From Amoebophrya sp. A120 (lineage: Eukaryota; Protista; Dinoflagellata): DNA of 64,000 bases. The notes under the pieces are model-generated. The model did not search any database. It had not been told where the DNA came from and worked only from the letters and a program-made list of their open reading frames with translations. The translations under genes were made by a program, and so were the position numbers. Position 1 is the stretch's first letter. Every line of letters begins with the position of its first letter. The stretch is from contig CAJINV010000003.1 of NCBI GenBank assembly GCA_905178155.1, forward strand, positions 3,148,260 to 3,212,259. Reading direction: 5' to 3'. Below, piece after piece: positions 20,440 to 52,919 of the stretch.

Positions 20440-21785
20440 ATGTCTTCCTGGTGGGGTCCGTTTCTGTGGTCGCTGGCAGTCTTATGCTCGGTACTTTTAA
20501 ATTGGCGAGGCTACGTGACCGGCTGGTTTTGTATCAATGTGACAGTCGTCGCATTTTGCGACGTTTTCTTTCTCAGCGCATACGATTCTGCATTCGAAAA
20601 ACTGGCCAAACAGCGACAGAAGCTTGAGAAGAGAAAGAAGCAGGCCGCCGCCAAATTTAAGAGGAAAATCGAGGCATTATCGGCATCGTCGTCCTCAGTT
20701 TCACGAGACTACGGAAATACTCCGCGCTCCTAGAGGAGACACGGGAGAATGTGGTATAAGTACATTCATGATGATCAAGACACGGAAAGTAAATGCGTGC
20801 CTTGTGCACTTTCTATTTTCATGAAAAAATATTCTTTAGTGTTTTCATCCTACGTGCCAAAAAAATCTTCAACTGCACCTCAAACCATAAAATATTTTGA
20901 CAGCTTTTTCTCATCGCGCCGCTCGCACTGACTCTTCTCCCAGCCACGTGGACAGACCAGTATCCCGCCCCGCCGGCGAAGGTGAAGGCAATTCCGGTGT
21001 CGCCAACGGAGATTAGGCTCGTATGGAGCAGCGGAAGTCGGATGTACGGACCGCTGCACACGGAGCAGTACCGTGTGGAAATGCGGAACGTGTGGAAGCA
21101 GAACACTGTGCCATTGACCGAAGCGCAGGAAAAGGCCACCAAGTGGCGCGTTGTCGGGGACGACTTCGAGGTGACGGGCGCCGACGGGTGGACCTGTAGC
21201 ACGGTGGTGGACAACCTGGAGGCCGGCGGGGAGACTGAGTACCGGGTCACGGCGTGGAATTCCCGCGGGGAGACGCCCATGCTGCAGAATCCCGTGCGCG
21301 CAAAAACGAAGCTGATGCCCAACGACGAAGACGGCGGCTCCGGGCCCAACTACGTCTGGGGCCAGACAAAGGAGCGCGTCACGGTGGTCGTGAAACTGAA
21401 AACAGAGGAAGACGACGATCATACAACTGTAGATCCTGCGACAGGAGAAAAAAGGAACCCTGGAGCTCGTCCACCTCTCATCGTGACCAGTAAGCAGATA
21501 GATGTAAAGTTGAAACCGAAGGAGCTGCTGGTCAAAGTGGCCGGAAAAGAACGATTGAACGGGCAGCTGCCGTTTTTCGCCGTTCCGGACGATTTGACGT
21601 GGACTCTGGAGGCTGAGAAAAACGCTTTGGAGCTGGAATTCGCGAAGCGGGACCCGGGAACCAAGTGGCCCACTCTGCTGCAGGGACATCCGGAAATCGA
21701 CGTCGAGGAAGTGGTGTTTTCGTCGCGGATGTTTGGCGGTAAGGGCAAGTTCAAACCGGAATTGATGAAGCTGGGTCTGACGTGA
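20440..21785 (+). CDS. Fibronectin type III + CS (p23/NudC-like) domain protein; the 5' exon with a hydrophobic segment is uncertain
   Basis: Exon 20944-21785 has FN3 motifs (PAPPAKVKAIPVSPTEIRLVWS, VDNLEAGGETEYRVTAWNSRG) and CS motifs (YVWGQTKERVTVVV, LTWTLE, LELEFAK, WPTLLQGHPEIDV). The junction with ORF 20440-20733 is not resolved. Confidence 0.7.
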
Positions 21786-22555
21786 GCTTGGGATCTGCAT
21801 TTTGAAACTGCTTGATTTGGATAGAAATTTTTATCTTTCTTGTTGGCTACGGCGAGCGCGAGACGAAGAAGTCTTCGTGTAAAAACCGCAAAACGCAGAA
21901 AATTTTCTACGCGCGTACGATAGAATTTCATCAGGGGGACTGCGATGTTGCCTAGTCCAACCTAAGGAAATTAGGTTAAGTACGCTGGTGCTACATCGCA
22001 ACTAAGAAAGCGAAAGCATAAAGGCAGAGTGTCTGCGATAAAATGTATGGCGCGCTGGATTCTCCGTTGTATCGGAGAGGCTCTTTTGGTTTGACAGGAA
22101 AATCAAGAGAAACTTGAGTGGGTGTTTCATTCGAGAGCAGAATGTCAACATGGTGGGTTGACTGTGTCGGTCTATACTGGCTGTATGTGCGATAGTGGTA
22201 CGACGTCTAGCTAAGATAAAGACGAGTGATGTCGAGTCCAGTACAACTTCTATCAGAACGATTTTTCATTGCCGGGGCTCTTTGGGGTTTAGCGCTAGCT
22301 TTTTTCGACTGTCAATCTTTCCACAGGATGTTGATGACTTTTGAACCCTGGATGGACTGCAAGGGAAGTCAAACAAAATTTTGATTTTCCGACTAAATGG
22401 AGTTACCGTGCCAATACAAAAAAAATGGCCTTCGTTCTTCATCCGCGGTGCAGCAGGTTGCTTCGTGGCACCGCGGAGGTGGCCCCCTACCAAAGACCAT
22501 CAGCCGTTTTCTTTGTTAGAAATCCACAGCAGCGGCGTTAGCCTCAAGAACAAGT

Positions 22556-25500: not shown

Positions 25501-28500
25501 ATACAGCGAAGCGGCACGACGCCGGGAACTGGCTGCAGACGACGCGGTGGACGCCTCTGCGGACACTCAAATTGCTGAAAAACTCCGTAGACTGGCGATG
25601 AATATCGTGGTCACGTACCAGATTAACGTGCCTGGCTCTCTAACCCCGACGGTGATGCCAAGCGTCGACCCCGCAATGTTTGACAGCTCCTTTTCCTCGG
25701 CGCTCGCAACGGCCACAGGGTACACCGTGTCCAGCCTGGTCTCGGAGAACCAGCCCCAGCAGCAGTCCGCGCCCCAGGCCATGGTGGACTTTTCGGCTTT
25801 TTTCTCCAGTCTGGACTTCAGCCAGGAGTCCACGTGCGGGAACACGAACACCACCTGGTGCTTGAGACACATCGAGGGCGTGATGGGCATGCAGGTGGTG
25901 TTTCCCGACCTGGCCGAGGCGGTTGCCTCGCTGCAGGCGAGTTTGGCGGCCGGCATTCCGCAGCCGACCTACATGCCCTTTTGCGACGACTACATCATCA
26001 GCGACAGCGACACCCGCCTGGTGAACGCCGCGGACTGTTTGGCGCTGTTGCAGCAATTTGCCTACCCGCTCATGACATGCTACATGACGCGGGGCGTCAC
26101 GATGGTGGTGGACAACCCGGATAAGCTGACGGACTGGATTATATTCCGGTCCGTGAGCGACAACGACAAGCTGGCGAATCCCCACGGGCCGCCGAAGTAC
26201 AATTGCGAGCAGGACGTGGCCGCGGCAAGCGGGCTGTCGATCACTGACCTGTCCTGGTCCAACACGTACAACGGGTTCGACAAGTGGTTCGTCGGCGCGT
26301 TCCGGCGCGCGGAAAACCTGGCGTGCAAGTCGGGCGTCGCGCAGGTGTTGACGGACTGCCAGCGGCTGTGCGCGCAGTGCGGCGTGCAGTACTCACCGGT
26401 GGTGTCCCAGGTGCTCGACGCCGTCCAGGAGTGCGCCGACGCCGCGGGCTACACCGACTGGCAGGGCAACGGGTGCGCGTGGTACCACAAAAACGACCCC
26501 ACCTGCACGCTGTACGCGGACACCGCGACCAGGTATCAAATGCAAATATGTCTGGGTCTGGAAGGATGCAACTTGTGATGCTACCTTTGGACTCTACATA
26601 AAATCTGTATTGCATCAACAGCAAAAGTGGCACAATTTGCGCTACGCGGAGAGGGCATTTCTCATGCTGTATGAGCATCAAAAAGCTCTCGCAGAATCTC
26701 TGACGCTAGGGCATGCATCACAGACCTCATGGGTCATGCAAAATCTGCGTGAGAAACCCCTGCGTTCGTCCAGAGGACCCAGACATATTCGCAATCCATA
26801 CCAGGGGCAACTGCACCATGACCTGCAACACCTGCGGAAAGACGCACCTGATGGTCAGCAAGTTCGACATCACCACCGACGAAAACATCGAGCCCAACGA
26901 ACTGAACGCGCTGCTCGTCTCCACAAGGAAGGAGTCCATGCGCGTCAGCTACCACGACCTCACCCGCGTCATCGGCTGGCTCTGCTGCTACGAAAAGCTG
27001 CCCACCGCATTCGTCGCCCAGAGTCCAGCCTGCCAAGGGCTGGCGATGGGTATATTCATACAAGCATGATCGTGGTCTTGACTTGAAGATGGTGCCCCTC
27101 TGATCGTGGTTTTTACTTTTTTGTGCACTTGTTTCTGCATGCACATGCAGTTGCAGTCCCAGTCGTCCCCTGCCTTGAGATCGTTTTTGAATCTGAGCTA
27201 GTAGCTCGTGTCTATTCAATCCTTTCAGGTAAGTTTGACGACGGTGTTGCGTACAAGTTGCTGAAGACGATCGAGTTGACCTCGGCGAACGCACCCTGGT
27301 CAACCGCGAGCACGGCAAAGAAGAAGTGGACCGAGTGGGGGTTTGAGGCCATGATGAAGAAGTACATGCCGGAGTTTTTTTACGACAGCCAGTACCAGGA
27401 CTGGAAGTTGGAGGTTTTGGTCGACACCATCTGGAAGGAGGAGTGCGTGAACGTGTACAGCGACCGGCAGAAGATGGCGCTGCCTTTGCTGACCAACCCC
27501 ACGAGTCCGCTGAACATGCCGCTGCTGGATTGTTTAACAGTTTTCGAGTCGTCCATGACCCCGCGGGCCAGTTTGATGCTGGGCCGGGCGAGCGACTCCG
27601 AGGTGGTCTACGGGTTCGCCTCGGACATGTCCACCACCCAGATGAAGAACGCGAACCTGGAGCGCAGCTGGCTTACCTTCGACCAGTGCTCGACGCACGC
27701 AAATTGCACGTCCGTCTTCCCCTACGCCTGCCAGTACGTGGAGGACAGCAACAACCCGTTTGAGCTGTACCGCCCTGCGTGGAAGGACGGCACCGGGTAC
27801 GCAAATGGTGCTACGTGCGACCCCTACTCCACCACAAAAAGACAGCCGATGTACTGCGCGAAGCGGTGTTTGACCGGCGGCTGCGGCGCCACGTCCGACG
27901 TGGTCTGGGGCGCGCAGGCACCCGCGAACTTCGGCTACTGCCAGCCCTGCAACGGGTGTTTGACCACCGAGACCTTCGACGGCAGCGCGTGTCCGAGCCA
28001 CTGCCGCACTGGCATGCCGGCGACGGTTACTCTCGCGGCGGGGGAGTTCACGGTGGAGGAGAATCCGAACGCCATCGGGGGGTTCACACTGGACGCGTGG
28101 GTGAAGATGTTCAACTACCAGTTCGTGCTGAAAAAAACCAAAACGGTGTCGGGTCTGTACCCGAACCACCGGTGGATGGGGTACGAGGTGTCGGAGGTTG
28201 CGGTCGCGAACGTGGACAAGTACTTTCCCGCGGCCTGCCGCGAATTCGACGGCGTCTACGCCAGCACGAGTGGGGCCTTCGACTGGCGCAACGTGCAGAT
28301 GTTCCAGGCGCTGGAGCATAAAATCAACAAGCACCAGCTGGTGATCTCGGTGGAGTTCGCCGTTTCCCAGTCGACCACCCCGCTCTGGATCCTGCACGTT
28401 TCCTCCTCGTCCGGCGTCGCGCGAAATCCCGAGTGCTACGGCCACTTCGGCGGCACTTCGGCGAAGGTTGTTTTTGGTTACAAGCACAGCACGTCGCACG

Positions 28501-31500
28501 GCCCCTTCAGTACCGGAATCGCCGCCCCCGTGCAGCAGCAGCGCTCTGCGTCTAACGTGCTGTTTTTCCCAGCAAAAACACCCGCGGCGACCGGGTCGAC
28601 GACCGAAGTCGGCGCGGGCATCAGCTCCCTCCAGACGGCGTATGCAAGCGACATCAGCATCCAGCCGCACAAGGGCGAACTGGCGTGCTTCCGCTTGGAC
28701 TACAACCAGTTCTGCTTCCGGCAGAAGTGGTGGGAGGCCACGTGGACGTGCGTGTCGAACCCGTACGCCGGCCAGCTGCTCGGGGACGAGGACTGGCACC
28801 ACTACGTCGTGGTGAAGCGGAGTTCCATGAGCTACAAGAAGGCCAACGCGGACGGCGCACTGCACGACGTGGCCCGGACCGACAGTCTGGAGGTGTTCGT
28901 GGACGGGCAGGTGGCCTCGTCGCTGCCCGGACTCGAAGCCGGCACCAATCCGGTCCCGAAGTGGGGCGCGGTGGACTGCGGGGGCGTGATGATGAGCATA
29001 TCAAATGTAGTAAAAATGTCTGGGTCTGGAAGAGTGCAAACTTGTGATGCGCATTTCACAACACATAAAAATCTCTCATGCATAGGCAGCAAAAGGTACC
29101 CACTTTCTGTCACCAAAATCGGGCATTTGTGATGCAGATTCGGCATTGCGGAAGCTTCTCCAAACCTGTGACGCTAGAGCTTCCATGCCAGACCTTGCGT
29201 GTCATGCAAAAGCAGCATGACTCTTCCAGACCCAGACATTTTTGCATTTGATAGAGCACGAGCCTGATCAACTCGCCCACCATGGACGGCGCTAATGCCT
29301 TGGTGTACCAGAATATCGCCTGGAATCAGGCCGACGTGGAGTACGCCACGACCGGCAACACCACCGCGGGGGTGGCCGCGGATGTCACGGTGCGCACGTT
29401 CCGCGAGGACATGGGCAAAATGTTCCCGATGACCGGGACGCTGCCTTTAGGTGGAAACATGACCATCACCGCCTTCACCTTCCCGGCCGTCGAGGTTCCG
29501 CGGAGCGGGTACGTGTGGAGCGCGAAGCTGGTGCTGTGCGCGGCGGATTTATTGGCCAACCTGCGGTACTGGCAGATCGGGTGCACCAGCACCACGGAGA
29601 AGGCCGCGAAGGAAAGGGTGGAGCTGGAGATTTTCGCGGTCGCCGCGTCCGTGATAAGTTTGGACGACACGCAGAAGGTGTCGGATCCCTGCTACTACCA
29701 CAACCTGGCTCGAGGGACGAAAAAGGTCACGATGACCGTGCAAGGAGCTTTATGGCGGGAGAAGGCGGTGTTCCACCAGCCCAACGGCACCCGGAGTGCG
29801 AACTTCGTGCCGCGGTGGAACCCGGCGCTGGACTGCCAAGAGCAGTCGGTGGACATCATATTACAGTGAAAAATGCCCCCACCCCCAAAGTTGCAATAAT
29901 TTGCGATGCGAAGTTTCCAACTGAAAACTTTTTGTCATGCATGAAAGGAGCACGAATCTTTCTGATGCAGAGTCTCGGCGTTTATAGCATCGCTTGCATG
30001 ACGATGACAGGCGCCGCATCTGCTGGGATCTTTTGCAATACAAATCTTTGCTATTCAGGATTGAAAACCTGTGATGCTGATAGATGCAAGAGGGCGAGTG
30101 CTTCATTTGGAAGGGTTTGCAATGCAAATGCTGTCAAGTTCTGGGTTGGGGGCATTTTTCATTGTAATGCATCAAAGAAGTGATCGACGAGATCACGAGC
30201 GACCCGGGTTGGACGTGGGGCCGGCAAATGACTTTACTAGTTGCGGAGAAGGGCATGATTGACCAGACCTGTTCGGCGAGCCTGATGAGCCAGGAGGTGG
30301 TGACCGGCGCGGACATGGTGACGGCGTTGCAAAAGGCCTCGGTGAGCCCCTGCAAGACCATTGAGGACATCAAGAACAAGCTGAACGACCATTTTCCGCT
30401 CTGGGTGGCACCCTTCGAGGACGCTTCGAACCAGGACATGACGCCGGCGATGCTGAACGTGGAGTGGTGTCTGAACAAGGAGTGCACTAGTCCCCACTTC
30501 AACGGCGCGGGTGCGGACGTGAAGTTTGGGGGCACCTCGGCCACGGCCACCACCACGCCACCGCCGACGACCCCACCACCGCCCATGGGTGGTGGTCCCG
30601 GGGGGGGCCCAGGCGGTCCTCCACCCCCCATGCCGAGGCGGAGTTTGGGGGAGCGAGATCATGATGAGTACGACGACCATAGTGCCCCACCTCGCGTTTT
30701 CTCGTCACCGCACGAGGCGTACGCTCTGCGCCGGCCCGACGACGAGTGGCCGCCAAGAAGTCAGGTGATGTTCGTGCCGGAGAACGTCGTAGACCACGAC
30801 GACTTTGTCCGGGATCAAGCGCACCGGAGAACCGAGGAAGAGCAGGAGATTGGGTATAATCAAGGCCGCTCCGTTGCCGCTCACGCAAGGGCTGCGGCCT
30901 CGCTCGCGAGCGAGAAGATAGAGCAGATGAGCGCGTTGGCGCGACCAGAAGGACAGCTGCCGGCCTTGCGGAAGGCCAATGTGCGCACAACGAACGGAAT
31001 CACGCATCATCCCGATACACGGGTTTTAGAAGACGCGGCTCGACGTGAAACGTCCGATAATTACAGTGTTGTCGACAGTTTTTTTAGAAGCCCTGAAGAT
31101 CTTTCGCCGGGGGTAGCGATAGAAGCAATTGGGAACAGCGGTAAACGACCTCGAAACATTTTCGAAGAATTGAACTTAGCAACCAGTGGGTACTACGACC
31201 AGGCTACTTCCGTCGAAAAGAATGCAGGTTCTGTGCCCGCAGCCGTTCCAGTTGTGCTGCCAGCTCATCATGAAGACACTTTTTACGGGCCAACGGGGGC
31301 GTTGTCGGCTTGGGATCATGAAAGAGTGACTTCTTCGGAAAGTAGTACATCATCAATCTCCGCCGGTGCAGCTGCACAACTACTTGCGGCCGATATTTCT
31401 CCAGTGCAGCGTCAGCTGACTTCGAACGGCACCAGTGCCACGAGCGCTACGCTTCTCGGTGTCCGCCCTGCGACGAGCGCGGTGACGTCCGGAACGCTGC

Positions 31501-34141
31501 AGCTCGCGGGGCTCCCGCGCGACGGCAAAATGTACGGTCTGAAGTTCACGAACCGGGCCATGAAATCGTCCGAGGTGCAGTTCAACTTCTACAAGGACCG
31601 CGACACGGTGAACCAGCTGGCCGGGCCGGTGGACGTGATCCTGCCGGTCGAAGGCAACGACGACGCCACGCTGGAAATCGACCAGTTCCCGCAGGAGGTG
31701 GTCTCGATTGTGCCGCCGGTTTTGTTGCAGTCCCGCACCGACTTCAAGCCGTGCACCGAACAGGTGCCCGGGCTGGCGCGGAACCTCCTCGCCTACTTCG
31801 AGGCGCAGGTGGAGCAAAAGTGCTCCCGGACCTACAACTGCGACTACCCGCAGGACTCCTCGCGCAGCGGCTTCGCCTGCATCGATCGCGAGGACGACAA
31901 CTTGTCCACCGGGCGGTGGTTCAGCCGCGAGTCGTTGGAGGCGGAGGGGTTGATGATCCAGGGGTCCGTGTTCCCGGAGTTTTTGGACACGCTGACCATC
32001 CCGACGGTGTACAAGGACCGGCAAATTTTGTCCTCCGACTCCTACATCGACATGCGCACCAAGGAGGTCTCCGTGATCAACGTGTTTCTGAATTCCAAAC
32101 TCCGCAGCGGCACGATCTTGGAGGTGAATTTCAAGTACGGCGGCCCGGGCAAGATCGAGGCTCAGTACAAGATGCTCTCCTCGAAGCAGATGGACCCGGA
32201 CACGCAGGCGACGTGGAGTGTGTGGGTCACCCTCGTCTACACGCTCTCGATCCTGGACCTGTTCCTCCTTGCCCTGGGCACCATCCAGACCTACCGCGAG
32301 CGGCAGAAGTGGAAGCACAACATCGAGATGGACGGGGCGATCCCGTTGAACACGCCGGGCCGCGTGGACGTGTGGAAGCGGATCGACTACGGCCTGCGGT
32401 CCGAGCTGCCGCTCTGGTCCGGGTGGGACGTGTTCGACGTGGCGCTGCGGATCTTTAACCTGATCTTCACCGTGAACCACTACAACCACTACTACTCCCC
32501 GAAGCTGGGCGTGGCGGGTGTGGAACGAGGCGAGTTCGAGGAGCTGCTGAACAAAATTCTCGTGGTCCCCTGGCCCAGCGCGACGCTGCGGTACGAGGAG
32601 AAAGTCACCATTTTCATGCAGCAGCTGGCCAACTTCGCGGTAATGCTGGACCAGGACTCCGCGATCCGCACCACGGGGTATCTGCTGGTTCTGCTTATGT
32701 TCTTCCGCATCGTGGCCTACCTGCGCGTGCACCCCCGCATCGCGGTGCTGTACAAAACCATCGAGGTGGCGCTGGATGATTTGTTCCACTTCTTCATCGT
32801 CTTCGGCCTCCTCTACGCGGTGCTGGCCTTCATCGGGGTCTGGATGTTCGGGGCGATCAATCCGAAATTCGCATCCTTTATGGACAGTTTCATCACGCAG
32901 TTCGAGATGCTGATGGGCGAGTACCCCTGGCCGGAGTCCACGCTGGACCAAAACTTCGGGCTGTTCTTTTCCTACCTGAACATCTACTCGCTCGTCGTGT
33001 TTTTTATCCTTCTCAACTTCCTGCTCGCCATCATCGTCGACTCCTACGCGAGTGTGAAAGAGATGGTGAACACCTGCGAGGTGGAGTGCAACATTTTGAC
33101 CGACATCGTCGCGTTGCTCTGCTATCCCTACATGCGGGTGGTGTACCAGTGGCCGGAGCGCGGCGAGCTGATCCGCAAATTACTCGCTTTAGACGTGAAC
33201 TTCGACTTCATCAACGACGAGGAGGAGGAGGAGGACAGCGTCGCGGTGACGGAATCTGCTTTAGTCCGCGGCAAGGTGTTCCCGAGCGCGGTGCGCGCGC
33301 GCCAGTTTCTCAACTACTACCTCTTCCTCGCCCCGGCCCTGGACGTGGACCGGGAGGAGGACGCCGGGGCGCTGGAGCACCAGCGGAAGCTGCGGGCTTT
33401 GCGGAACCTCGACATCCTGCGCGAACGCCTCCTGGAGGCCGCGCTGAACAGCGGGCTGATCGAGCTCTACCGGCCGCCGCCGTCCAAGCCGCCACTGGGG
33501 TCACAGTTGGAAACTTTGAAGTCCGAAGTGACGAACCAACTCGACGAAATATTACAGTGAAAAATGCCCCCCACCCCTGAAATTGCAAAAATTTGTGACG
33601 CGAAGTTTGCAAATGAAAACTTTTTGTCATGCATAAAAGGAGTATGAATCTTTCTGATGCAGAGTCCAGGCGTGTATCGCATCGCTTGCATGGCAAGCGC
33701 CGCTCTTGCTGGGGTCTTTTGCAATACAAGTTTATTCTATTCACGACTGGAAACCTGTGATGCTGATAGATGCAAGAGGGCGACTGCTTCATTTGGAAAG
33801 GTTTGCAATACAAATGCTCCCAAGTTCGGGGGTGGGGGCATTTTTCATTGTAATACGAAATGTCGAAGGAAGCAACCTTGATGGAGACTAAGCTGAAGAA
33901 ACTCGAGGACGGCGGCTCGCTGGCCGTGCAGGATGAGACGCAAAAGCGAAACGAACTCATCAAGAAGGCGGTGGTGGGCGTGGCGAAACTGCACACCGAC
34001 GATGAGCAGAAGGAAGCCGCGGACAAGATTTTCGGGCACTTCCTGAAACCCGGACCAGAAGCCATGAAGGCGAGTCTCGCGGCGCTCAAAAAGGGGACGG
34101 GAAGAACGTCGCAAAAGGAAGACAAAGTAAACGAAGTCTGA
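22556..34141 (+). CDS. Giant polycystin-2/TRPP-like cation channel (~3,093 aa) with LamG-like, Cys-rich/ShK-like and EF-hand-like modules in the S1-S2 ectodomain
   Basis: Exons 22556-23528, 23787-23844, 24129-24388, 24602-25295, 25507-26533, 26806-27049, 27229-28998, 29259-29858, 30175-33549, 33861-34141 sum to 9,282 nt, in frame. S1 EEEFIRCVLFFVGF; TOP-domain end YIDMRTKEVSVINVFLN..EVNFKYGGPGKI; S4-S6 FRIVAYLRVHPRIAVLYKTIEVALDDL, WMFG, FEMLMGEY, FFILLNFLLAIIVDSYASVKE. Confidence 0.85.
23529..23781 (+). mobile_element. Introner (family B), perfect 30-bp TIR, TSD CGACG
   Basis: TATCAACTGCAAAAATGTCTGGGTCTGGAA...TTCCAGACCCAGACATTTTTGCAGTTGATA. Removal gives YAHD|AVLQAAV. Confidence 0.95.
23845..24123 (+). 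mobile_element. Introner (family A), TSD GGGCA
   Basis: TATCCCAAGTAAAAACGTCCCCACCCCA...TGGGGTGGGGACGTTTTTACACAGGATA. Removal gives CLGGH|VVLGSEK. Confidence 0.95.
24958..25068 (+). repeat. Coding 24-bp tandem repeat (QSPDPNAN x ~4.6), preceded by degenerate PDPN units from ~24889
   Basis: CAAAGTCCCGACCCGAATGCAAA(T/A/C) units at 24958, 24982, 25006, 25030 and a partial unit at 25054. Confidence 0.9.
26534..26800 (+). mobile_element. Introner (family B-like, diverged right end), TSD CCAGG
   Basis: TATCAAATGCAAATATGTCTGGGTC...GACCCAGACATATTCGCAATCCATA. Removal gives DTATR|GNCTMTCNTC. Confidence 0.9.
28999..29253 (+). mobile_element. Introner (family B), TSD GAGCA
   Basis: TATCAAATGTAGTAAAAATGTCTGGGTCTGGAAGAG...CTCTTCCAGACCCAGACATTTTTGCATTTGATA. 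Closely similar to 52051-52307. Removal gives VMMS|TSLINSPTM. Confidence 0.95.
29859..30169 (+). mobile_element. Introner (family C), TSD CATCA
   Basis: TATTACAGTGAAAAATGCCCCCACCCC...GGGTTGGGGGCATTTTTCATTGTAATG. Homologous to 33550-33855. Removal gives SVDI|KEVIDEI. Confidence 0.95.
33550..33855 (+). mobile_element. Introner (family C), TSD CGAAA
   Basis: TATTACAGTGAAAAATGCCCCCCACCCC...GGGGGTGGGGGCATTTTTCATTGTAATA. Removal gives QLDE|MSKEATL. Confidence 0.95.
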
Positions 34142-34830
34142 GAGGATGAATGCTTTTGCTTGGTTTTCAGCCAAAATTATTTTTTCCAGGAACCAGCCTT
34201 AGCCTCGCTATATCGTAAAAAATGTGTCTTGCTGCAGAAAGAAGAATCTTAAAAAACCTTGTACACTTTTTGCTTTGAATACTTGCGCCACCAGCTGTCG
34301 CACCTCAATAAAAAGAAAGCATCTCACTTCATGGTCTATGAAGAAATTTTGTGTCACCCACCCTAAACTAGATGAATGAAAGAAACATCTGAACAGACAT
34401 GTGATACCGAAGTAGAATTACAAGTTCCGTATCACCGCTAGAGCATTTGTCCAAGAGAACGGGAAGAAAATGCTGATTACTTTGCTGAATGTCTAGAACA
34501 AGGCATCCGCTTGAAATTTTCTGCGAAATGCAACATTGCGGACTTCAATAGTGTCATTCTCGCACACCAATTCCTGAAGCTGGGATTTCCTACAAAGATG
34601 AGAATGAGTTGCTGCTGTTGCGGCTCATCTTCCGTTTTTCGTGGCCTCTGGGCACTAACCTGAAGAAAAATAAAAGTACAGCGGTTCAATAGTCAAGCCA
34701 AGCAGTGAAAGCCCGGCACAGCATCGGAAGCGACGTAGCTACAATTTCGAACGCCTCTAATCAGCAGCATGATCCAAAATAAATAGCTGACTAGTGATGG
34801 CATAGTTGCGTACACGTGACAAACTTCAAC

Positions 34831-37800
34831 ATGGAGGGCCGGGAATCGTCGGAATCGTGGCGCGACGTTCAGATTTCTCGAGCACTATGGCTGGCCGCGA
34901 ATGGAGGAGCTCGCGGACGGGGGTGTGACGCCCTAGTTCTGCCCCAGTTTCGCTACGATGTCAGCACGGCCCAAATCGTATACGCATGGCCTGCAACAGT
35001 GGAGAAAAGTCTTTTTTCGGAGTTCGTCCGCGCTGACAAGAAAGACGAGCTTCGTGAAAACTACTTCGTGCTCCAAATGATTGACAGGAGCGCGGACGAT
35101 GCCGTCTGCGGGTTCCCGGCGTATAGCTACCAGACAGATCCAAATCGAGAAGGTATTCTACGCCATGGAGTTTACGCCCCGACAGGCTCTAGCGGGACGA
35201 GGTCGCACTACAACGTGATCGGGTGTAGCAACTCGCAGTTGCAAAAATCCACTTTTTTGTTCCGTCGTGGAACCTTGCAGGGGAACGCGAAGTTTTTTCG
35301 GAGGCTCGTGGGCGTGCATCTGGAAAAACTGGAGGAGAAAAAAGGTATCCCGAAGCGCATGAAGTACGCCGGTCTACTGTTTTCAGGCTGTCAAGTCATC
35401 GCCGATTTGCCCCCGGAAACTGAAGTTGTGGAGATTACGGATACCAAGTTCACTGACGGATGCGGACTGATTAGCCACAAACTCGCACTTTGCTTGTCGA
35501 AGCAGATGAAACGCTCGGCGGGCGGAACAGAGCGCGACTCGCTGCCGAGCGTTTTTCAGATTCGGTTTGCCGGAGAAGTTTTGGAACTGTCAAAAGAGAT
35601 TGAGGAACCACGGAAGACGAACAGCTATGTCTGCAAAGGTATTCTCGTTGTTGATCCCGATCAGAAGGACTCCTTCAGAATTTCGTTTCGGAGATCCATG
35701 CTGAAAATGCGACTAAGCGACACCAGCGCGCTGCAGAACAAAGTCGGAATACTAGCAACCAGCAGGCGCAATATCGGCAAAATGTCGAAGCAGTTTATTA
35801 CGCTGCTTAGCGCAACCGTACCGGCCCGAGACCTCCTTGCATTGCAGAAGACGCATCTGGAGGCTCTGCGTGATTTTCCACACCGCCCCCTTGCTCTGGC
35901 GTATCTTGCAGCCATGGACCACCGCCCCCTCACCTGGCAGAAGTATCTGAGACTGATCGACCTCATCGTGGAAAGCAGCGGCATGCAAGAAAAACCTGAG
36001 CGAGTACCTGCGCTGTACGACGCGCTCATTTCTTGCCTCCGAGGGTTCTACGATGAAAAAAAGTTCCAGATTCATCTCGGCTGTTCGCGCATGGTACTCG
36101 GAGCAGCCTGGCCCGAAGCGCTCCACGAGAACTTGGAGGAAGGTGAGTGTGTTTTTTTTACCGACCAGGGCCTATTTGAGGGCGAGGTAATTCTTTACAG
36201 GAGTCCATCCTACTCTCCGGGCGACATTCGCCCGCTCCGTGCGGTTGGTCTCCCCGAGAACCACCCCGCTCGGTCCCTACGCAACGTGATCTTCTTCGCG
36301 ACCAAAGGCGAACGCCCCGAGGCAGACAAGGCGAGTGGTGGCGACCTGGACGGCGATCTTTTTTTGGTAACGTGGGACTCGCGGCTGGTGAAGTATTCCA
36401 GCGAGATTGCAAAATGGAAACCCGCAGACTACGATGGTCCTGTAGTAGCCGGAATTTCCGGCGGCGCCGTACATCGCCCAAAAGAAGACTGGATTCTGTA
36501 CGCGTCGCGTTGGAACAATGACATGCTTGGCATCGTAGACAGTGCGTTTTATTCCATTGTGCGCGAAAGTGGCCTCGACGGCGAGAACGCCCGGCGCTTG
36601 AACCTGCTCTTCAGCAGCGTGGTGGACAACAACCCGGCATCTATTCGAGAGTTCAACAAACTCGTCACGTCTACATACGTGCGCTGCGCGGATCCGCTCA
36701 AGAGCGGCACGGTGGATCTTCTGAACGACAACGTGAACGACGCTGCTCCTTGGGAAAAAGCGCTGCACATTCACAAGGCTTTTGCAAAGACGTTCAACGG
36801 TACAGAGCGAAATAAAGAACAGCGACTTGACGACTACAAAACCTTCTACGAAAATGTGCTGACTTGTCGCGATGCTTTGTCCGCGGAGGAGAGAAGCCAC
36901 TTTTTCGCTGTACTTGGAGAGCACGGTATGAGCGACTGGGACGAACGCATTTCAGAAGCGATGAAGCGCCTTCTTTTCCTGCAGGAGAGGAGCCCGCGGC
37001 ATGCAGTGGCGTCCATTTCGGATTGTAAACATAACAAAAAATGCAGACTTGCTGTGCAAGAGTTGGAAGTCATCCGAAACCAAGAGATACCAAACCTGTT
37101 CAAACAAGGAATCATCAACCTTGACGTGCAGCGTTTGGAAGCACAAGAGAAGATCAAAGAGCAGAACGAAAAGTGGCTCCGCAAGCTGGACGACTACGAA
37201 GCAAGGCGACGAGACTGCAACGGAGCGCATCAGGTAAAGCAGCAAGAACTGATATCTGCTTTGGAAAATATGGATCGAACTTACGAGGTCGCACGAGACG
37301 AGAGAAGAAAGAGGCGAATGGAGCTTGAAGGGCAGATGGAAATCATGGAAGAGACGATTCGCTGTCTGGACGATGAGAAACGGAAGAGAGAGACGGAGGT
37401 GGATTCGTGCACAGAAGAGCTCCGAAGGATGGGGCGATTAGATAGATATGTGCTCAAGCGTTCCCTAGCCGCCCAGCTTGAGGAGCGAAAGAGCCAAGCA
37501 GTGGGGGAAATACAGCGGATTGAAGAAAGGATATCGCGAAGGAGAAGCGAATTGCGGAAGCTCGAAGCTAACAGAAGGGAGTACTTCTCTTGGCGGAAAG
37601 AGCAGAGAGACCGTCTCTCGGAACAGAAGGAAACCTACAAGAGTAAGGCATTAGCTGATACCGATTCTCTCATGGCGAAAATCGATAAAGAAGAAGAGGC
37701 CTTCAGGTCCGGCGAGCGGCGGGAAATATTGAAAAGTGAGCACGACGTTCTGGCTGTAGAACTCAAGCTGATCAAGGATGAGCGCGAACGAGAAGACGCC

Positions 37801-40800
37801 GAAAGGAAGCAGTTGCAGAATGATATACGCGACTGCAAAGCGGAGCTTGTACAGGCAAAGAATCGCGTTGCAGAGTTGCAAAGGGAGCACGAAGAAGTCT
37901 CCAATGTCCTGCAAATGTGTCGACTGGCGGAGCGAAAAAGTGAGAATGCGGAGGAATTTGGGGACAGTGATTTGTGCTTTTCCACTTACGCAAGGTTTAA
38001 GAAGCTTCTCGCTGCAGTCAGTCCTGCTTGTGAGTGTTTCGGGACCCAGGTACCGGAGCCGCGTACTTGTCAGGAGCTGAGTAATCCCAACCTTCTCAGA
38101 CAGTTCCGGTCCGACGTTAGGGCTGCGCGAAAAGCAGTGGCGCAACATGCAGAAGATGTCGACGAGGATGTCCGAGCTGCCGACGAACTGCTTGGCGAAA
38201 GAAGGAAAGAGTATGGGAAGAGCGAAAGGAAGAAGCACCGTACGCGCATCGAAGAAGCAGAGTCAGCGCTCAAACTTACAACAGCAAATCGTACGCGCTT
38301 CAACGCGAAACGGAAGGAATTTGAGGAGCTCTACAAGCAGACACGCGGCGAGCTCTTGGACGGAATGACTCCTACCACATTTGCGAAATTTTCCGGGTGC
38401 TTTAAATGCGTGAATCAGCCACCACAATCTCAATCTGCGGCTGGCCAGACAAGGGGCATCGAATGTGAAGCGGATTTTTCTTGCAAAGTCTTGAGGGAGT
38501 TCAGAATGGAATTCGAAAGCGTTGATGCCGACCTTCGAAGTGAAAGTCCGTTTCTCGACCATAGCGATGTTTTCCGGCGTAGTAAGAAGTTGGTGACCAC
38601 CATGCTAGAAGAACTGCCGAAATGCAAAGTGGAGATCGAAGCTAGCATCGTCACACAGAAAGAGAAGCGAAATGAAATCAAGCACCAACTTGGAGACTTT
38701 AACAGCACGCTCGAGGAAGCGGACGCCACTATCGCGCAGCTGGACAAAGAGATCGAAGACAAAACTGGAGCGGATGTACGAAAGAGAGCGGAGCTAGCAG
38801 ATCTCTACTCTGCGGAGATTGTCCTCGAGGAGGAAGGCAAGCTGGCATTGCTGGAAGCGGAGGAGGAATGTACTCACCTGGCCATGACGCATCTGCGATT
38901 TCGCGTTGACGAAGTGAGTCGGTTCGTAGACCAGCAACTGGACCTGCTCGACGAGGCAAACAACTCGCTCTTTGCGGCGGAGTTTCACAAGCGGCGCCTC
39001 GGTATTCAACGGGCAATGGCGACGGAGGAAAATCGGCTGTACGGAATGAAAAGGGCGGATGGCAAGCGCGGCGGCCCCATGCCTGTGTACAACAAGCGGG
39101 CGGAGCTGAATCGTGTTTTGCGCGAAGGAGATGCAGTCATTGTCACGGCTGGGACGGGGTGCGGAAAGAGTACACAAGTCCCACAGTATCTCGCCGATGA
39201 TCTTCGCAGCCTGGTGGCATCGAAGGAAGGCAGCAGCGGCGACCCCGATCGTTCGTTTCGCGTATGCTGCACACAGCCACGTCGCCTAGCCGCGCAGTCC
39301 ATCGCGCAACGGGTGGCGCAGGAGTACGGGACGGAAGTGGGAAAACTGGTTGGGTTTCGTGTCGGCAACCGCGGCTCAGAGAAAACGGCAAGCTCCAAGC
39401 AGATCTCGAGGGAAACTGTCATCGAGTTTGCCACCGAGGGACTGCTTTTGCACCAGCTATCACGGTCGCCTGATAGCATCGCAAACTACGACTGCATCAT
39501 CATTGACGAAGCGCACGAGCGTAACAAAGAAACCGATTTGCTCTTGACTATTTGCCGCAATCACCTGCGAAAGTCTGATCGCAAACCCTTGAAGGTGGTA
39601 GTCATGTCGGCATCGATCGATCCGTCACGCTTCTGTGCCTACTTCGACAACTGTGCGACAGTGGACTGCCCGGGAAAAAACTTCCCTGTGGAAGAGATTT
39701 ATCTCCCCATCGAAGTAGCGTCGTCTCCCGGTGAGAATCATAGCGGGTCCTTTGATAATTTGGTCGAGCATGCGGTGGAAGTTCTTTTTGAGGAGATCGT
39801 AGGCAAGCGGGCCGAAGAGAAAGGGGACGTGCTGATCTTTCTGGCTGGGGCAAAACCCATTAGCGAGTGTGTGCAGAGCATTAAAAGTCGGGCTATGGAT
39901 GAGGGGCTCGATGACCGCGTGGTTGCTTACCCGCTTTACGCCAGTATGCCAGAGGAGGACAAGGATCACGCAAAAGACCCGGAGCACCGAACTGGACTCG
40001 TTGAGCGAGACCCTGACGACATCGGCACCAGCGTTGGAAAGACGAAGAAGAAAAAACCACGACTGCCTTCAGTAGCGACGTACCGACGTAAGGTGATTTG
40101 TTGCACCAACATCGCGGAGACGTCTCTGACCATTGACGGGGTATGCTTTGTATTGGACGGTGGAACGTCGAAGCAGCTGTCTTACAACCATGACCTTCGA
40201 TGCAGCGCCCTGCGTGAAGAGAGGATTTCGCAGGCCTCAGCGAAGCAGAGGCGCGGGCGAGCGGGTCGAACGCGGCCTGGAGTATGTTTTTATCTGTACT
40301 CGAAAGATACACACGAAAATGTGATGCCGGACTACGACCAGCCACAGATCCTTCGCGTATCCGTCGACTCGCTCGTGCTGTATGCCTTACACGTTCAAGG
40401 TTGCAGTATCGAGGATCTCGGTTTGTTGGACTGTCCAACGGAAGCACACATAGCTGCAGCGAAGCAGCGGCTTCTCGACTTGCGGATGGTGCAACTGAAG
40501 GAAGAAAATTTTGTTTTGTCGCGTTTGGCACTGTCACCTCCTACGACAGTAGAGCTGACAGCGGACGGCGAGATTGCGGCAACGCTGAGTTCCAGTATTT
40601 CCGCCGAAGGTGTGCGGATGATTTTGGAAGCGCGCGAAATCGGCCATTTGCAGGCCGCGATGAAACTTGCCGTGTTGTTGTCCCTTGACGACGACGTGTA
40701 CGCACGGAAGAAGAAAAAAGACGCGAACGGCGCTCAAGAAGGTACTGAGGAGCCTGCAAATAGGAGCGAGTGATTTACGTACACTCATTTTACAACGATG

Positions 40801-43800
40801 CGATAGCGATATTCGTATCTTTTTAGTGTTTCGAATGCACGGTGCGTGGACTGTTTCGCTTTTGACGGTTGTCCAACTACTTCATTGACTAATCTATCTT
40901 CCGTTTCACACCAATCAGGTCAAGATGATGAAGGAGTGAGGCATAACGCTCTCGGTGACCATTTGGCCACGTTGGGCGACGTCGAAACTTTTGAAAGAGA
41001 AAGACAACGCCAGAGGAAGGACAAGAATAGCAAGCAGCTGCGGAATTGGTGTAAGCGCAAGAAGCTCATCTACTACGTCGTCGAAAGGGTTCTTCAAAGC
41101 GTCGAGCAGTGCCACAGCGAGTTAAAGAAGCGGAAAATGATCGGGCAGCAACATCCTGATGCTCTGCCGAATTCCCGGATATTCTCGAAGAACGAAAGTC
41201 TTCTGCGAGCAGCAATCTGTGGCTATTTTGATCAAATCGTCGAGTGCGTGAACCCTGGGTCCACCAAGCTCAGTTTCGTGCGGATATCTGAAATAAAAAA
41301 GTCCAAGAGCACAGAGTTTGAAACTGCAACGCAGCCTGGCAAAGAAGCCCGCGACAGGCCGACGCTAATTCTCGACAAAGAGTCATGTCTGTTTGAGGTG
41401 TTGCAGGAGCGCGACGAAGCGGAGGAAAGCGAGAGCGATGAGGAGAATACGACGGGCGCTTTAGCTGCGGGCAACAGCGACATGGAAGCCGAACCTCCGT
41501 GCTCGCACCACCTCGCCTTTCTGTTTTTCAGCCAATTGCTGTCGATCCAGACCAAAAGGGGCGGAGTCTTGACCATAATGCGCGGTGCGAGTTTGATCCA
41601 AGGAACATGGATCGAGCAGCACGCACCACAGCAATGGATGGCGCGGCTTGACTTCGATCCGAAGAAATCAAGCGTGTGCCGCGAAACTATCCGCTTCGTC
41701 GGACGCACTGTTTTAGCACAGCTGAAGGACAAGCTGCCAAACCGCGACACTTACCCTGGGCTCATGGATACGAAGGTCTTCTGGAACAGCGCAATGGTGC
41801 GGATGCTCGGTACACAGGAAGCGACTTCGACTGCGAAGGAAGACCTGCGAATGCGAATACGGGAGATTCGCGACAAGCTCACGCAGGACGAACAAACTTT
41901 TCCCACGATTGAGGTCTACAGCAAGGGATACAAGCTGAAGTTTAATCATGGCCTCGTCCTGGCAGACCTGCAAAGCATCGGGAAAACGCGTAGTGCCCAC
42001 GACTCCGGCGCAAGCGATCCTGTGATAATGTGCGCCGGCATCACTCTCCCATGTCATGCTTTGAAGTTTTCGCCTGCAGCTGCTGTGTCATCAAAGCGCG
42101 GAGGCAACGCCGACGGAGACTATTCTCGGCACGACGGATGCTGCTTCGCCGACATGGAGTTTCTCAAGGATCATTATCGCTTCCGCCTTTCGCAAGATGG
42201 TCGTGAACTAACACTATTTCTCAATGCCGGTCTGAGAAGTGATGTGTTTGAAGCGCGGATACGTAAAAATGCTCTGCCGCAGGGTATCACCATGGTGACC
42301 GAGACGTCCCTCCCGAAACTTACCTTTCGTCACTGTAAGGATTCTGCGGAAGACTCGGATGCACACACCGAATACAACACCGACGTTAGCGCGTCTAGTT
42401 TGCCAGTCGCAACTTCTAGCGGCGGTGGCGGTTTTGGAAAAAGTAAGACAGGTAAAAAAAAGGGAAAAGGTAAAGGTGAAGGAAAGAAATCTTCCAAGCC
42501 CGTGAAGCTCAAAAGCCCTCCTAACAGTGCGGGAAGAAAAGGAAAGGGAAAAATGAAAGAGTCCGGTGTGGTTGCGTTTCACGCGCTCGAGAACTTCAAA
42601 TCGACACTGGAATTAAGTGGTGCTCTCGAGCCGTACCGCGTTGATGTCTTGCAAGTATTGATGAAGGTGTATAACCAGGGAGGCTCGTTGGCGGACCGCA
42701 GCGTAAGCGTGAGCGAGGAGTTGCAGGCGATACAATCGGAGTTGCGGCAAAGTTACCTGTTCTGGCACACTTTCGTCACGGAATCGCTGGCGCGCATGGG
42801 AGTGGTACAAACATCACTTGCGCTCCGTCTGCATGCGGAGCAAAAAAAGAAAGACCACTGGGATATTTTCGTACGACTGAGGTCGTCCACCCCACCGGTG
42901 TTTGAGGTCTTCGGAGAGAAAGCGGACCACGCCAAGACCGTGCTCTTCGACGCGTTGCGCAACCTCCTTCGCCCTAGCTCCGTGGCAACGGCATACTACA
43001 GACCGACACTGCTGAAGAATGCGAAGTTGCATGTCGCGCGACTGTGTGCAGTGGTGCAGGAGGTCCGCTGTTTGTATCCGCGGGTGAGGATTTTTATCCG
43101 GCTGGAAAGTGCAACATGTCGTGCCCGACGCGGAGTCGGAGGCGTCGACACAAGCGATGGCGAATGCGACATGGGGCCTAGCGAAATAAAATCCGCTGCA
43201 TGTAGTCTCGACACGATCACGAAGGAGCAGTCGGAGGTGCTAGACAACGACTCGTCTTCAAGTAGCGACTGTTCATCGGACGAGGCTCCAAGTCTGGACA
43301 CCGCGCGCGCCGCCAGTTCTGCGTTTGTTCCATTTCGATGTGAACTAGAGCGCCTTCTTGCTCTTTCATCGGATTGCTCGTCTACCGGGGCGGGTGCCCT
43401 AACCGTTGTACTTCAGGAAGTATCTCCCTGCTTGGGACGCACAAAGCAGACTGCCGCAACCGCTAGTGACCTCGAAACTCAAGAAGTGCGCAAAGCTTGC
43501 GCACTCGTACGAAACAGATTTCGACTTTCAGGTTCAGCCCCAGCGCTCGCAACTGCAGATACTCTCCATCAAGAATCACGACCACTAGAGGAGGGGGAGC
43601 CGGACCCAAAACAGGGACACAGTAGAAGGCGGTGTGTCATGTGTGGGCGTTGCACGACCCGCAGTGAGCGCAAAGATAGAGGACGCAAGTTTGAAGCTCT
43701 TCGTGCGTCGGAGAATAAGCAGGATCCACGTAACAAGCCCTGCGACGCACTGGTAGAGCCCCAAGGCTACGAGCTGACTTTGTGCGGATGCAAATATTGC

Positions 43801-44292
43801 AAACCATGTTTTTTACAATGCGTAATGCTGTCTATCATCGAAACCGGAATAGCAAAATGCAGACGGTGCGAAACGGACATTCTAGCGAAGGACTGTCGAA
43901 ACATAATCTGTCAGCGCGGAGGAGAGTTGCAGCAGGAATTGGACTGGCAGCTCGTTTGCGATCTGGCTGTTTCCGAGCACTTAACAAGGGATGCTGAAGA
44001 CAGCCGCGAGAATGTTATTGCTTTTTCCCGAGCAGCTAAGGAAGACGCATCAATGGGCAGATTGTCAGGCCAATCAGTCACTGTGACCGACAACGTGACG
44101 TGCCCGGAGTGCAACACGACAAGTGCGTATCTTGCTGGGCCTGCGCAACGGGCGGGGCTTCGATTCGTTCGATGCAGGAACGAAGCTGCTTGTGGCAGTG
44201 TAATTTGCACTCTCTGTAATCGTGTCGTGCGCAACAAAAACGACGTTCAGCGATGCAGTGGCGGGTTCTGTTCCGGTGACACACAGGATTGA
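34831..44292 (+). CDS. Fusion protein (~3,094 aa): cellular RNA-dependent RNA polymerase + coiled coil + DEAH/RHA RNA helicase (with HA2/OB-like region) + RING/IBR-like zinc fingers
   Basis: Exons 34831-40741 and 40919-44292; GT-AG intron 40742-40918 with TGACTAAT branch site; 9,285 nt, in frame. RdRP motifs SNSQL, FTDGCGLIS, PSVFQIRFAG, CKGIL, RSPSYSPGDIR, SGGDLDGDLFLVTWD (~36343). Helicase motifs GTGCGKST (~39151), TQPRRLAA, DEAH (~39505), MSAS, LIFLAG, TNIAETSLTIDGV, QRRGRAGR (~40246), GDHLATL. C-terminal CVMC..CGCKYCKPC..CRRC and CPEC..CRNEAAC..CTLC. Confidence 0.9.
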
Positions 44293-44812
44293 GTAGTTCG
44301 TCAAATTTTCGGCAACGGTAAAGACCGGAAATGATCGTATAAGCAAGAAATTTCCACCGCTGATTCCCATTCCACCGATCCGGCGACGGATCCTCATTCA
44401 GGAACATAAAGAAATTTCTACTGCGAAAATTCTGCTGAAGTGCAGTCTCGTATTTTGTCTCAGAAGCTGGATGTTCTTGTTCTTCATGCAACTAAGGATG
44501 TCAGGAAACTTTTCCACGTCGCGTGGAGGAAGCAGTGGAGAGTCACTGTGAAGGGCCCGGGCCGCGTTTTTCCTTATCCGAAAAATGGTGCAACTGAGAG
44601 AAAAATAACTGACCCCGTGCTATAGCCGAAATTCCCGTTCCTCTGTGACTCATTTGTACGTATTCTTAAGTAGGCAAGAGTAGTATAGTTCAGCCTCGTC
44701 AATTCCTCTTGTTCCTTCGTTAGCCTCAATAATGAGGAAAAGCCGTACAACAACGAGCCACGGTTGTGGAGGGGAACCTTCCTGTGGCCCGCTGCAGCAC
44801 TGCTCGCACTGC

Positions 44813-51859: not shown

Positions 51860-52919
51860 ATGGCAGTGAAAAGTCGCACCGCCCTGACAAGATTGGGCTT
51901 TCCGGGTCCTTCTGCTTCGAAAGGCACCACGTCGTTCTGGCCTTCCAAGGCGTTGGAGCCTTTCGCGACGGCAAATAACGTCGTTCTACCCGCTTCGAGC
52001 ACCCCGACCACCACTCGGATTCCCGATCGGATCGCGACGCGGCACTACCATATCAAATGTAAAAATGTCTGGGTCTGGAAGAGTCCGAACTTGTGATGCA
52101 CATTTCAGAACACAGGAAAATCTCTCATGCATGGGTAGCAAAAGCTGCCCACTTTCTGTCACCAAAGTGGGGGATTTGTCATGCGGATTCGGCATTGCGG
52201 AAGCTTCTCGAAACCTGTAATGCTAGAGCTTCCATGCCAGACCTTCTGTGTCATGCAAAAACAGCATGACTCTTCCAGACCAGACCCAGACATTTTTACA
52301 TTTGATATACCACCATTGCCAGCAACTCCACACGTTGTTCACGAGGCCGTCTTTGCCTTCCGCCACCGCTATCCAAAGTTTGACGCGCTCTACTTCCTCT
52401 TCCGGGCTGCTGCTTCGCGCATCCTCACCTTACCCGGTTTTCTGTGCCTTCCAGACGTTGAGGCGCTCCATTGTCACCGATGTCGAAACCGCCAGTCGCG
52501 GCGGGAAAAACCGGCCGCTGGAAAGCTGGGAAGAGGTGGAAAAGCACCACCTGAAAATTCCCACGCTGGACAACTACAAGCGGCCGAAAAACGCCCCGCT
52601 GCCGACGGAACTGACGAGAGCCGATTACCATCAGTTCATGCGGGGAAAGCCGCGTCGGTGGCAGCAGCAAACGGTTTGTCCGGCGGTAGGCGCGGCGTTG
52701 ATCTGCTTCACGTTTTGCGAGATGGCCTACGCCATGTTCAAACTGAAACCGGACGACTTCGATTGGATCGAGGAGGAGAGAGCACGCGCCAGAGCCGCCC
52801 GAGAGCGGATCGACCTCGAATTGCGGAGGCGCGAAAAGGAATCGAAGACTGAGGCAAAGAAGATTCTGCAAGGCGGCGAAGATGTCCCGGGAATTACGGG
52901 GCCGGTCGCGCCAGCATGA
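51860..52919 (+). CDS. Probable mitochondrial single-TM protein (C-terminus reminiscent of COA3/CCDC56)
   Basis: Exons 51860-52050 and 52313-52919 join after introner removal. Basic, S/T-rich presequence-like N-terminus; TM followed by YAMFKLKPDDFDWIEEERARARA. Family call is weak. Confidence 0.6.
52051..52307 (+). mobile_element. Introner (family B), TSD TACCA
   Basis: TATCAAATGTAAAAATGTCTGGGTCTGG...CCAGACCCAGACATTTTTACATTTGATA. Removal gives RHYH|HCQQLH. Confidence 0.95.

Follow-up and report, generated by a model that had tools for sequence, protein, structure and literature searches.

An RNA-dependent RNA polymerase joined to a DEAH helicase and RING1-IBR fingers in Amoebophrya sp. A120: a small conserved family across stramenopiles, dinoflagellates and animals

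The stretch of DNA analysed here (the window: 64,000 nucleotides of contig CAJINV010000003.1, Amoebophrya sp. A120) contains a gene of two exons whose spliced product is a single chain of 3,094 amino acids (aa). From its N-terminus, this protein comprises an RdRP (RNA-dependent RNA polymerase), a coiled coil, a DEAH helicase core, an HA2/OB module, a KH-like fold and RING1 and IBR zinc fingers. Judged by its sequence relatives, it is no peculiarity of one genome and belongs to a small conserved family that spans stramenopiles, dinoflagellates and animals. Apparently undescribed, the family is a conserved subfamily of RdRPs in which the built-in helicase is of a third kind and the RING-between-RING (RBR) module is truncated throughout. 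We put the chance that the protein serves as a self-contained, helicase-assisted RNA-copying unit for silencing or defence at about even (roughly 0.5).

Gene structure and transcript coverage

The first open reading frame (ORF1) runs from an ATG at 34831 to a stop at 40773, giving 1,980 aa without a stop (1,991 aa stop to stop), and the second (ORF2) measures 1,161 aa stop to stop. A preliminary description of this DNA had joined the two into one gene through a GT-AG intron. That join is borne out by the spliced junction in contigs and by the splitting of the HA2 region between the exons; the earlier 1,985 aa for ORF1 counts from an in-frame GTG at 34816. The spliced coding sequence has no internal stops, and the intron (40742-40918) contains a branch-like site, TGACTAAT. 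It is skipped in one contig each from runs X1, X2 and X4, out of four contig-yielding runs that are probably RNA; these represent two samples of one study. Their RNA nature is a guess, and no listed run is recorded as RNA. In run X5 the intron is retained, and a single DNA contig, which may be the window's own source, spans the whole gene. The raw-read runs X8, X9 and X10 gave 1, 0 and 0 matching reads, too few to bear on splicing.

The gene model is also supported independently of the reads, because exon 2 carries on the helicase fold (HA2/OB) begun in exon 1. Moreover, the RdRP, DEAD and Helicase_C matches all lie within ORF1, making the RdRP-helicase fusion independent of the intron. Cover by the probable RNA contigs is patchy, denser toward the 3' end, and stops at 44355-44383; parts of the RdRP region have none, which speaks neither for nor against the model. 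An artefact of assembly or annotation, or two genes taken for one, could be suspected because no contig in these runs bridges the RdRP and helicase parts; the transcript check proposed earlier found the spliced junction 40741/40919 and no contig across the coiled coil. Some relatives (P0121, P0255) are likewise deposited in databases as separate halves. Against this stand the stop-free ORF, the DNA contig over the gene, the junction in three runs, the recurrence of the layout in 12 clusters of relatives and the congruence of the domain trees, and we regard an artefact as extremely improbable.

Domain architecture

The PF05183 match in ORF1 exceeds its curated cut-off (198 bits against 23.8, E 4e-58). 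A structural model of the first 700 residues (predicted template modelling score 0.87) matches RDR2 and QDE-1 with E-values of 2e-27 to 3e-21, maize RDR2 being the best Foldseek hit (E 2e-27). The domain has the Pfam score, the DxDGD motif and the RDR2/QDE-1 fold of cellular RdRPs; its predicted activity is RNA-templated RNA synthesis. The motif G-G-D-[LM]-D-G-D was found in all family rows that cover the catalytic site, and the helicase motifs of the family are intact.

The linker was called as coiled coil with our own heptad score under a shuffle control; it marks 39% of residues 651-1400 compared with 0% of the remaining protein and 7% (maximum 18%) across 20 shuffles. Similar segments occur in 12 of the 13 relatives scored. 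Beyond it, 933 residues past the DxDGD and thus C-terminal to the RdRP, lies the helicase, in which Pfam recognises DEAD (aa 1428-1597) and Helicase_C (aa 1752-1814). Its motifs (GCGKST at 1443, DEAH at 1559, SAS at 1593, TNIAETS at 1759 and QRRGRAGR at 1806) are those of a superfamily 2 (SF2) DEAH helicase, the best solved relatives of the core are DHX15/Prp43 (E 1e-68), and no superfamily 1 (SF1) helicase of the AAA_11/AAA_12 type is among the Pfam matches of the protein.

The Pfam check proposed in the preliminary description came out well for ORF1, where PF05183, DEAD and Helicase_C all match, and empty for exon 2, where no model, those for HA2/OB included, matches even at E<=1. The HA2/OB part aligns with DEAH helicases at Z 9-11 (root-mean-square deviation, rmsd, 3-4; 130-173 residues aligned). 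Because Pfam finds nothing in exon 2, the RING1 and IBR calls rest on the family alignment, a profile-profile match and the fold. The tail matches DEAH12-like proteins in profile-profile comparison (HH 97%, E 9e-11, 191 columns, 22 against 3 sequences), with the homology covering the last KH-like unit, RING1 and IBR. RING1 aligns with 1wim (Z 7.8, rmsd 3.4, 88 aligned) and with HOIP RING1, 7v8f (Z 7.0, rmsd 3.8, 84 aligned), although VIA-align rows for RING1 and the KH-like fold, at Z 7-8.6, fall within a commonly reached range and count only beside sequence evidence. The RING1-IBR of HOIL-1L aligned with the exon-2 model at Z 7.7 (rmsd 8.0, 135 aligned), and the relatives P0005 and P0009 score slightly under the curated cut-offs of PF01485/PF22191. 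The zinc ligands of both fingers hardly vary across a very wide family, and most members share the Lys/Arg-rich RING1 insertion. Foldseek with the exon-2 model returned no match at E<=0.001. In the ESM Atlas the last 534 residues matched IBR/RBR clusters (0.82-0.89), which is no more than a lead, and the middle of exon 2 matched nothing; residues about 2300-2850 received no domain assignment. The earlier domain calls (intact DLDGD, coiled coil, DEAH/RHA motifs, RING1 and IBR without RING2) were right. Coordinates are collected in Table 1.

Table 1. Features of the RdRP-helicase gene, in positions of the window
Feature	Position	Strand	Description	Basis
Exon 1	34831..40741	+	aa 1-1970 and one further base; holds the RdRP, the coiled-coil linker, the DEAH core and the start of HA2	Stop-free ORF, Pfam
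RdRP domain	35203..36630	+	Cellular (QDE-1/RDR-type), aa 125-600	PF05183, 198 bits; predicted structure
Catalytic motif	36343-36357	+	DLDGD (residue 505)	Sequence
Linker	37129..38766	+	Predicted coiled coil, segments within aa 767-1312	Authors' heptad score with shuffle control
Helicase core	39112..40272	+	DEAH/RHA, aa 1428-1814; motifs I, II, III, V, VI intact	Pfam, motifs, fold
Intron	40742..40918	+	177 nt, GT-AG, phase 1, inside HA2 region	Sequence; skipped in X1, X2, X4 contigs
Exon 2	40919..44292	+	aa 1971-3094 and stop	ORF; probable RNA contigs end 44355-44383
HA2/OB module	40930..41670	+	HA2 ratchet and OB, completing the helicase	VIA-align to 3i4u, Z 11.4, rmsd 3.3, 156 aligned
KH-like fold	41671..41901	+	KH type I-like, no GxxG loop (GRTV instead)	Vigilin, Nova KH: Z 8.3, rmsd 2.9-3.0, 72-73 aligned
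RING1	43633..43869	+	RBR-type, C2876-C2954, eight Cys, Lys/Arg-rich insertion past second ligand	Family alignment, profile match, fold
IBR-type finger	44101..44271	+	C3032-C3088	Family alignment; P0005, P0009 near PF01485/PF22191

Distribution of the family

The full layout of RdRP, helicase, RING1 and IBR was found in 18 fetched relatives, which form the 12 clusters mentioned above; named carriers are Seminavis robusta, Odontella aurita, Clytia hemisphaerica and Convolutriloba macropyga. RdRP and helicase together, with or without RING1, occur in Prorocentrum cordatum, Polarella glacialis and Aphanomyces stellatus, and halves of the layout in Attheya and Corethron. Proteins from Endostelium (P0204) and Cladochytrium (P0219) are looser cases, on long branches and of uncertain membership. 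The source of one relative, P0014, labels it a complete ORF from one assembled transcript. Individual members carry additions: the Odontella protein P0127 has a TPR block (aa 2052-2127) between helicase and RING1, and the Convolutriloba protein P0011 repeats the IBR finger several times at its C-terminus.

Both family profiles are matched by 42 of the 403 proteins fetched, cluster members and the window protein itself included; three of the 42 represent a separate fusion in Porospora. An exhaustive search of 1.84 billion representatives yielded only 41 proteins at E<=1e-30, which indicates that the family is small. Two of the homologue searches, that with the RdRP among them, took in proteins up to 3,465 aa. 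Among the best 120 of 271 matches, the 17 best with the full layout (P0001-P0014, P0016-P0018) all have a DExH helicase, and those listed below them are mostly fungal RdRPs fused to SF1 helicases.

Viral contigs gave 110 pattern matches and no relatives, and of 234 matches in prokaryote genomes 2 were a fragmented, fungal-looking RdRP. On the deltaproteobacterial metagenome-assembled genome contigs L081 and L082 (2402-5570), the RdRP is spread over three frames in the manner of an intron-containing fungal gene, and is likely eukaryotic contamination. A metagenome scan of 22 of 64 parts, taking the best 80 of 277 loci, found two close RdRP fragments (L001 and L002) and no helicase or tail on any locus.

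The layout had earlier been said not to be a recognised, characterised architecture. No description of RdRP-DEAH-RING1-IBR was found in the full-text literature searched, which takes in few subscription papers and includes four surveys of RdRPs or RNA interference (RNAi) genes (PMC6396948, PMC4791657, PMC4290597, PMC7659050); its recurrence in 12 clusters means, however, that it is not unique. The published RdRP-helicase fusions met with in this literature have N-terminal Dicer-like helicases, apart from one AAA_12 case (PMC4791657, PMC6396948).

Phylogeny and origin

The preliminary description had called for separate phylogenies of each domain, and both recover the family as one clade: 26 rows in a quick RdRP tree of 77 rows (Shimodaira-Hasegawa-like approximate likelihood ratio test 98) and 27 rows in a helicase tree of 51 (99/98). 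The subgroups agree in both trees, namely diatom-named proteins with the window protein, animals, and core dinoflagellates. One clade and matching subgroups in two domain trees argue for one old fusion, and the data point to an origin in which an RdRP became joined to a helicase-RBR protein of the DEAH11/12-like kind. Most economically, the RdRP would have been placed ahead of a helicase-RBR gene, and RING2 lost. The sister relationship of the helicase to DEAH12-like helicase-RBR proteins is weakly supported, at 83/42 with five outgroup rows. An RdRP-DExH fusion in Porospora cf. gigantea (P0197, P0376, P0377) fell outside the family in both domain trees and was rejected as a member; with its C-terminal DExH helicase, it is probably an independent fusion, and it was excluded from the concatenated tree.

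That tree (19 rows) unites the window protein with those of Seminavis and Odontella and two further proteins at 100/100. A clade of the window protein with Prorocentrum was rejected by the approximately unbiased test (p 0.0002), a test picked after the first trees had been seen and applied to a Prorocentrum row that is long and compositionally odd. The recognisable genes of the window all lie on one strand. Such one-strand genes, and terminal inverted repeat (TIR) elements with non-GT-AG splicing, have been described for Amoebophrya (PMC7789003). If the host is indeed Amoebophrya-like, the grouping with diatoms would suggest gene transfer or hidden paralogy, and it bears on the view, stated in PMC6396948, that cellular RdRPs are inherited strictly vertically. 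Composition was tried as a sign of foreign origin and set aside: among ten ORFs measured, the gene has the lowest G+C content at third codon positions (0.59, against 0.61-0.80 in the rest), a difference too slight to show it.

Comparison with known systems

The window RdRP has the fold and catalytic DxDGD of plant RDR2 and Neurospora QDE-1 (PF05183), but starts about 125 residues in, and behind it linker, helicase and zinc fingers take up roughly 2,400 residues more. Those later parts are homologous to plant DEAH11/12 and animal DEAH12-like proteins, in which DEAH core, HA2, OB, KH-like fold, RING1 and IBR follow in identical order. In contrast to these, the family has an RdRP ahead, no RING2, a shorter middle RRM/KH block that Pfam does not recognise and, in most members, a RING1 His changed to Cys together with the added basic insertion. 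The helicase-RBR subfamily is described as ancient and frequently lost (PMC2904391).

RdRPs with Dicer-like helicases (Dictyostelium, peronosporomycetes, Hydra, Nematostella) also combine RdRP and SF2 helicase in one chain (PMC4791657). In Dictyostelium-type fusions the Dicer-like helicase is N-terminal, whereas the window helicase is C-terminal and of DEAH/RHA type with HA2/OB; the RdRP tree places two proteins with the helicase N-terminal to the RdRP (P0217 and P0243) outside the family. The order of the window protein, N-terminal RdRP and C-terminal helicase, is shared by fungal RdRP-SF1 proteins (Upf1/NAM7-like, e.g., FGSG_09076) and Branchiostoma BL02069. RdRP-SF1 fusions are the nearest RdRP matches after the family among those listed, yet their helicase is SF1, they have no RING1-IBR, and in the RdRP tree they fall into clades of their own, which meet the family in an unresolved fork. 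Some of the fungal-dominated RdRP-Upf1/NAM7-like SF1 set (P0020-P0120, P0152-P0238) carry an extra N-terminal AAA_28 domain; no paper devoted to fungal RdRP-SF1 fusions was found in the literature searched.

By analogy rather than homology, the protein also resembles Rdp1-Hrr1 of S. pombe and EGO-1/ZNFX-1 of C. elegans, where RdRP and helicase work together, and human ZNFX1, which joins a helicase to a ubiquitin-ligase module. EGO-1/ZNFX-1-type systems differ in being separate polypeptides, with an SF1 helicase that moves 5' to 3' and a Miz/RZ ligase instead of RING1-IBR.

The RING1-IBR module

RBR ligases require RING1, IBR and a RING2 bearing the catalytic cysteine (PMC2904391, PMC5758712). 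The window protein stops six residues past the last IBR ligand, and the RING2 motif was found in 0 of 23 family tails (5 of which end before or inside the IBR and so cannot test it) compared with 3 of 3 DEAH12-like controls. On the aligned sequences, RING2 is absent from all complete family members. A looser RING2 pattern matched one of the 42 proteins (P0007) and was rejected, since the cysteine concerned is an IBR ligand in the alignment. At the linchpin position, the residue past the last RING1 ligand, arginine is found in 0 of 19 rows and lysine in 4. Ahead of the second RING1 ligand, at a position with a role in E2 contact, a hydrophobic residue is kept in 15 of 19 cleanly aligned rows. 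With neither RING2 nor a linchpin arginine, self-sufficient RBR ligase activity is doubtful. In RBRs, RING1 binds E2~ubiquitin and keeps it open for transfer to RING2 (PMC5758712). The module is thus cautiously read as a putative dock for an E2 or for ubiquitin, and not an RBR ligase by definition.

Alternatively, the protein might be a ZNFX1-like ubiquitin ligase in which RNA switches RING1-IBR on, with the protein itself or its partners as targets. The missing step would then be made good by a cysteine of a non-standard kind, by direct transfer of the RING type, or by a RING2 provided in trans. The conservation of the zinc ligands is in keeping with this, as are two conserved cysteines read as non-ligands, C2015 (21 of 22 rows) and C2963 (13 of 21). 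ZNFX1 itself is reported to be a helicase that traps viral RNA and whose E3 activity is cryptic (10.1101/2025.09.05.674436), and to function with glutamine where the linchpin arginine would stand (10.1101/2025.10.14.682297). The counts for RING2 and arginine given above speak against a ligase, and PMC5758712 states that direct transfer to lysine is suppressed by the RING1 domain of RBRs. We consider the ligase explanation, with these routes, decidedly unlikely.

Possible function

DEAH/RHA helicases move 3' to 5', and RNA polymerases read their template in that direction. In the RNA-copying unit that we favour, the helicase, with its OB and KH-like folds assisting, would engage the RNA at a single-stranded 3' end and travel 3' to 5', clearing structure and bound proteins from the path of the tethered RdRP or freeing the RdRP product. 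The output would be antisense or double-stranded RNA that feeds silencing or defence, while RING1-IBR, by docking E2~ubiquitin or ubiquitin, may regulate the enzyme or set its location, with no usual RBR catalysis in cis. RdRPs with a separate helicase partner are documented by Hrr1 in S. pombe and by ZNFX-1, which co-precipitates with EGO-1 (PMC9276528).

Several observations count against this proposal. Beside the missing bridging contig and the weakly supported helicase sister group, the KH-like fold has no GxxG, and the exon-2 model is uneven, with a mean predicted local distance difference test (pLDDT) of 60, 453 of 1,123 residues below 50 and a poorly modelled middle. Furthermore, Branchiostoma has intact RdRPs, one with AAA_12, for which the authors speculate on a role unrelated to RNAi (PMC6396948); an intact RdRP therefore does not imply silencing.

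These RdRPs lead to a second alternative, RNAi-independent surveillance, in which the helicase would spot aberrant or foreign RNA and the RdRP would mark, tail or convert it so that it is degraded or sequestered, without small RNAs being loaded into Argonaute. Both Branchiostoma and Aspergillus nidulans keep intact RdRPs with no RNAi role found (PMC6396948), and among the matches listed the next-nearest RdRPs, the fungal Upf1/NAM7-like SF1 fusions, include some whose annotation refers to nonsense-mediated decay. RDR2 and QDE-1, however, the structural relatives that have been characterised, are silencing enzymes, and no nuclease or nucleotidyltransferase family is among the Pfam matches of the protein. 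We judge surveillance of this kind rather unlikely. The RNA-copying unit had also been suggested to act against introner RNAs; no tie to such a target was found, and the family is far older and wider than the Amoebophrya sp. A120 genome.

A bolder picture, which we think unlikely, is that of an undescribed single-chain RNA defence machine of marine eukaryotes, uniting RdRP, helicase and ubiquitin functions of the EGO-1/ZNFX-1 type in one protein made of unrelated parts. Its half-RBR would be a ubiquitin module gated by RNA, with the missing part made up in trans or through a cysteine of a non-standard kind. The gene would have moved sideways between lineages, here between diatoms and a dinoflagellate-like parasite.

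Clytia hemisphaerica and diatoms can be manipulated. With family members in both, the role of animal RdRPs beyond nematodes becomes testable, as does, in the same organisms, whether a RING1-IBR module without RING2 has any ubiquitin function.

Other features of the window

Directly upstream of the RdRP gene lies a polycystin/PKD-type channel gene (PF08016; about 26352-34584); a 7,998-nt probable RNA contig ends at 34584, some 250 nt ahead of the RdRP start. TIR elements of about 230-310 nt, belonging to at least three sequence families, occur at 9783-10062, 10133-10438, 23521-23789, 23845-24123, 26529-26805, 29012-29243, 29860-30168, 33550-33855, 52050-52308 and 58668-58942. The element at 33550-33855 is introner-like: in run X1 it appears to be removed by splicing inside a direct repeat of 7 nt, without GT-AG ends. 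Other genes encode a Y-family DNA polymerase (IMS; 17212-19983), a protein kinase exon (12894-13397), an HlyIII-family membrane protein (2528-3325) and fn3/CS/laminin-G exons (20901-23566). A mitochondrial carrier gene (6980-8519) has few relatives, which include a fusion of a cytidylyltransferase-like domain to a carrier (P0379 by PF01467; P0381 by source name).

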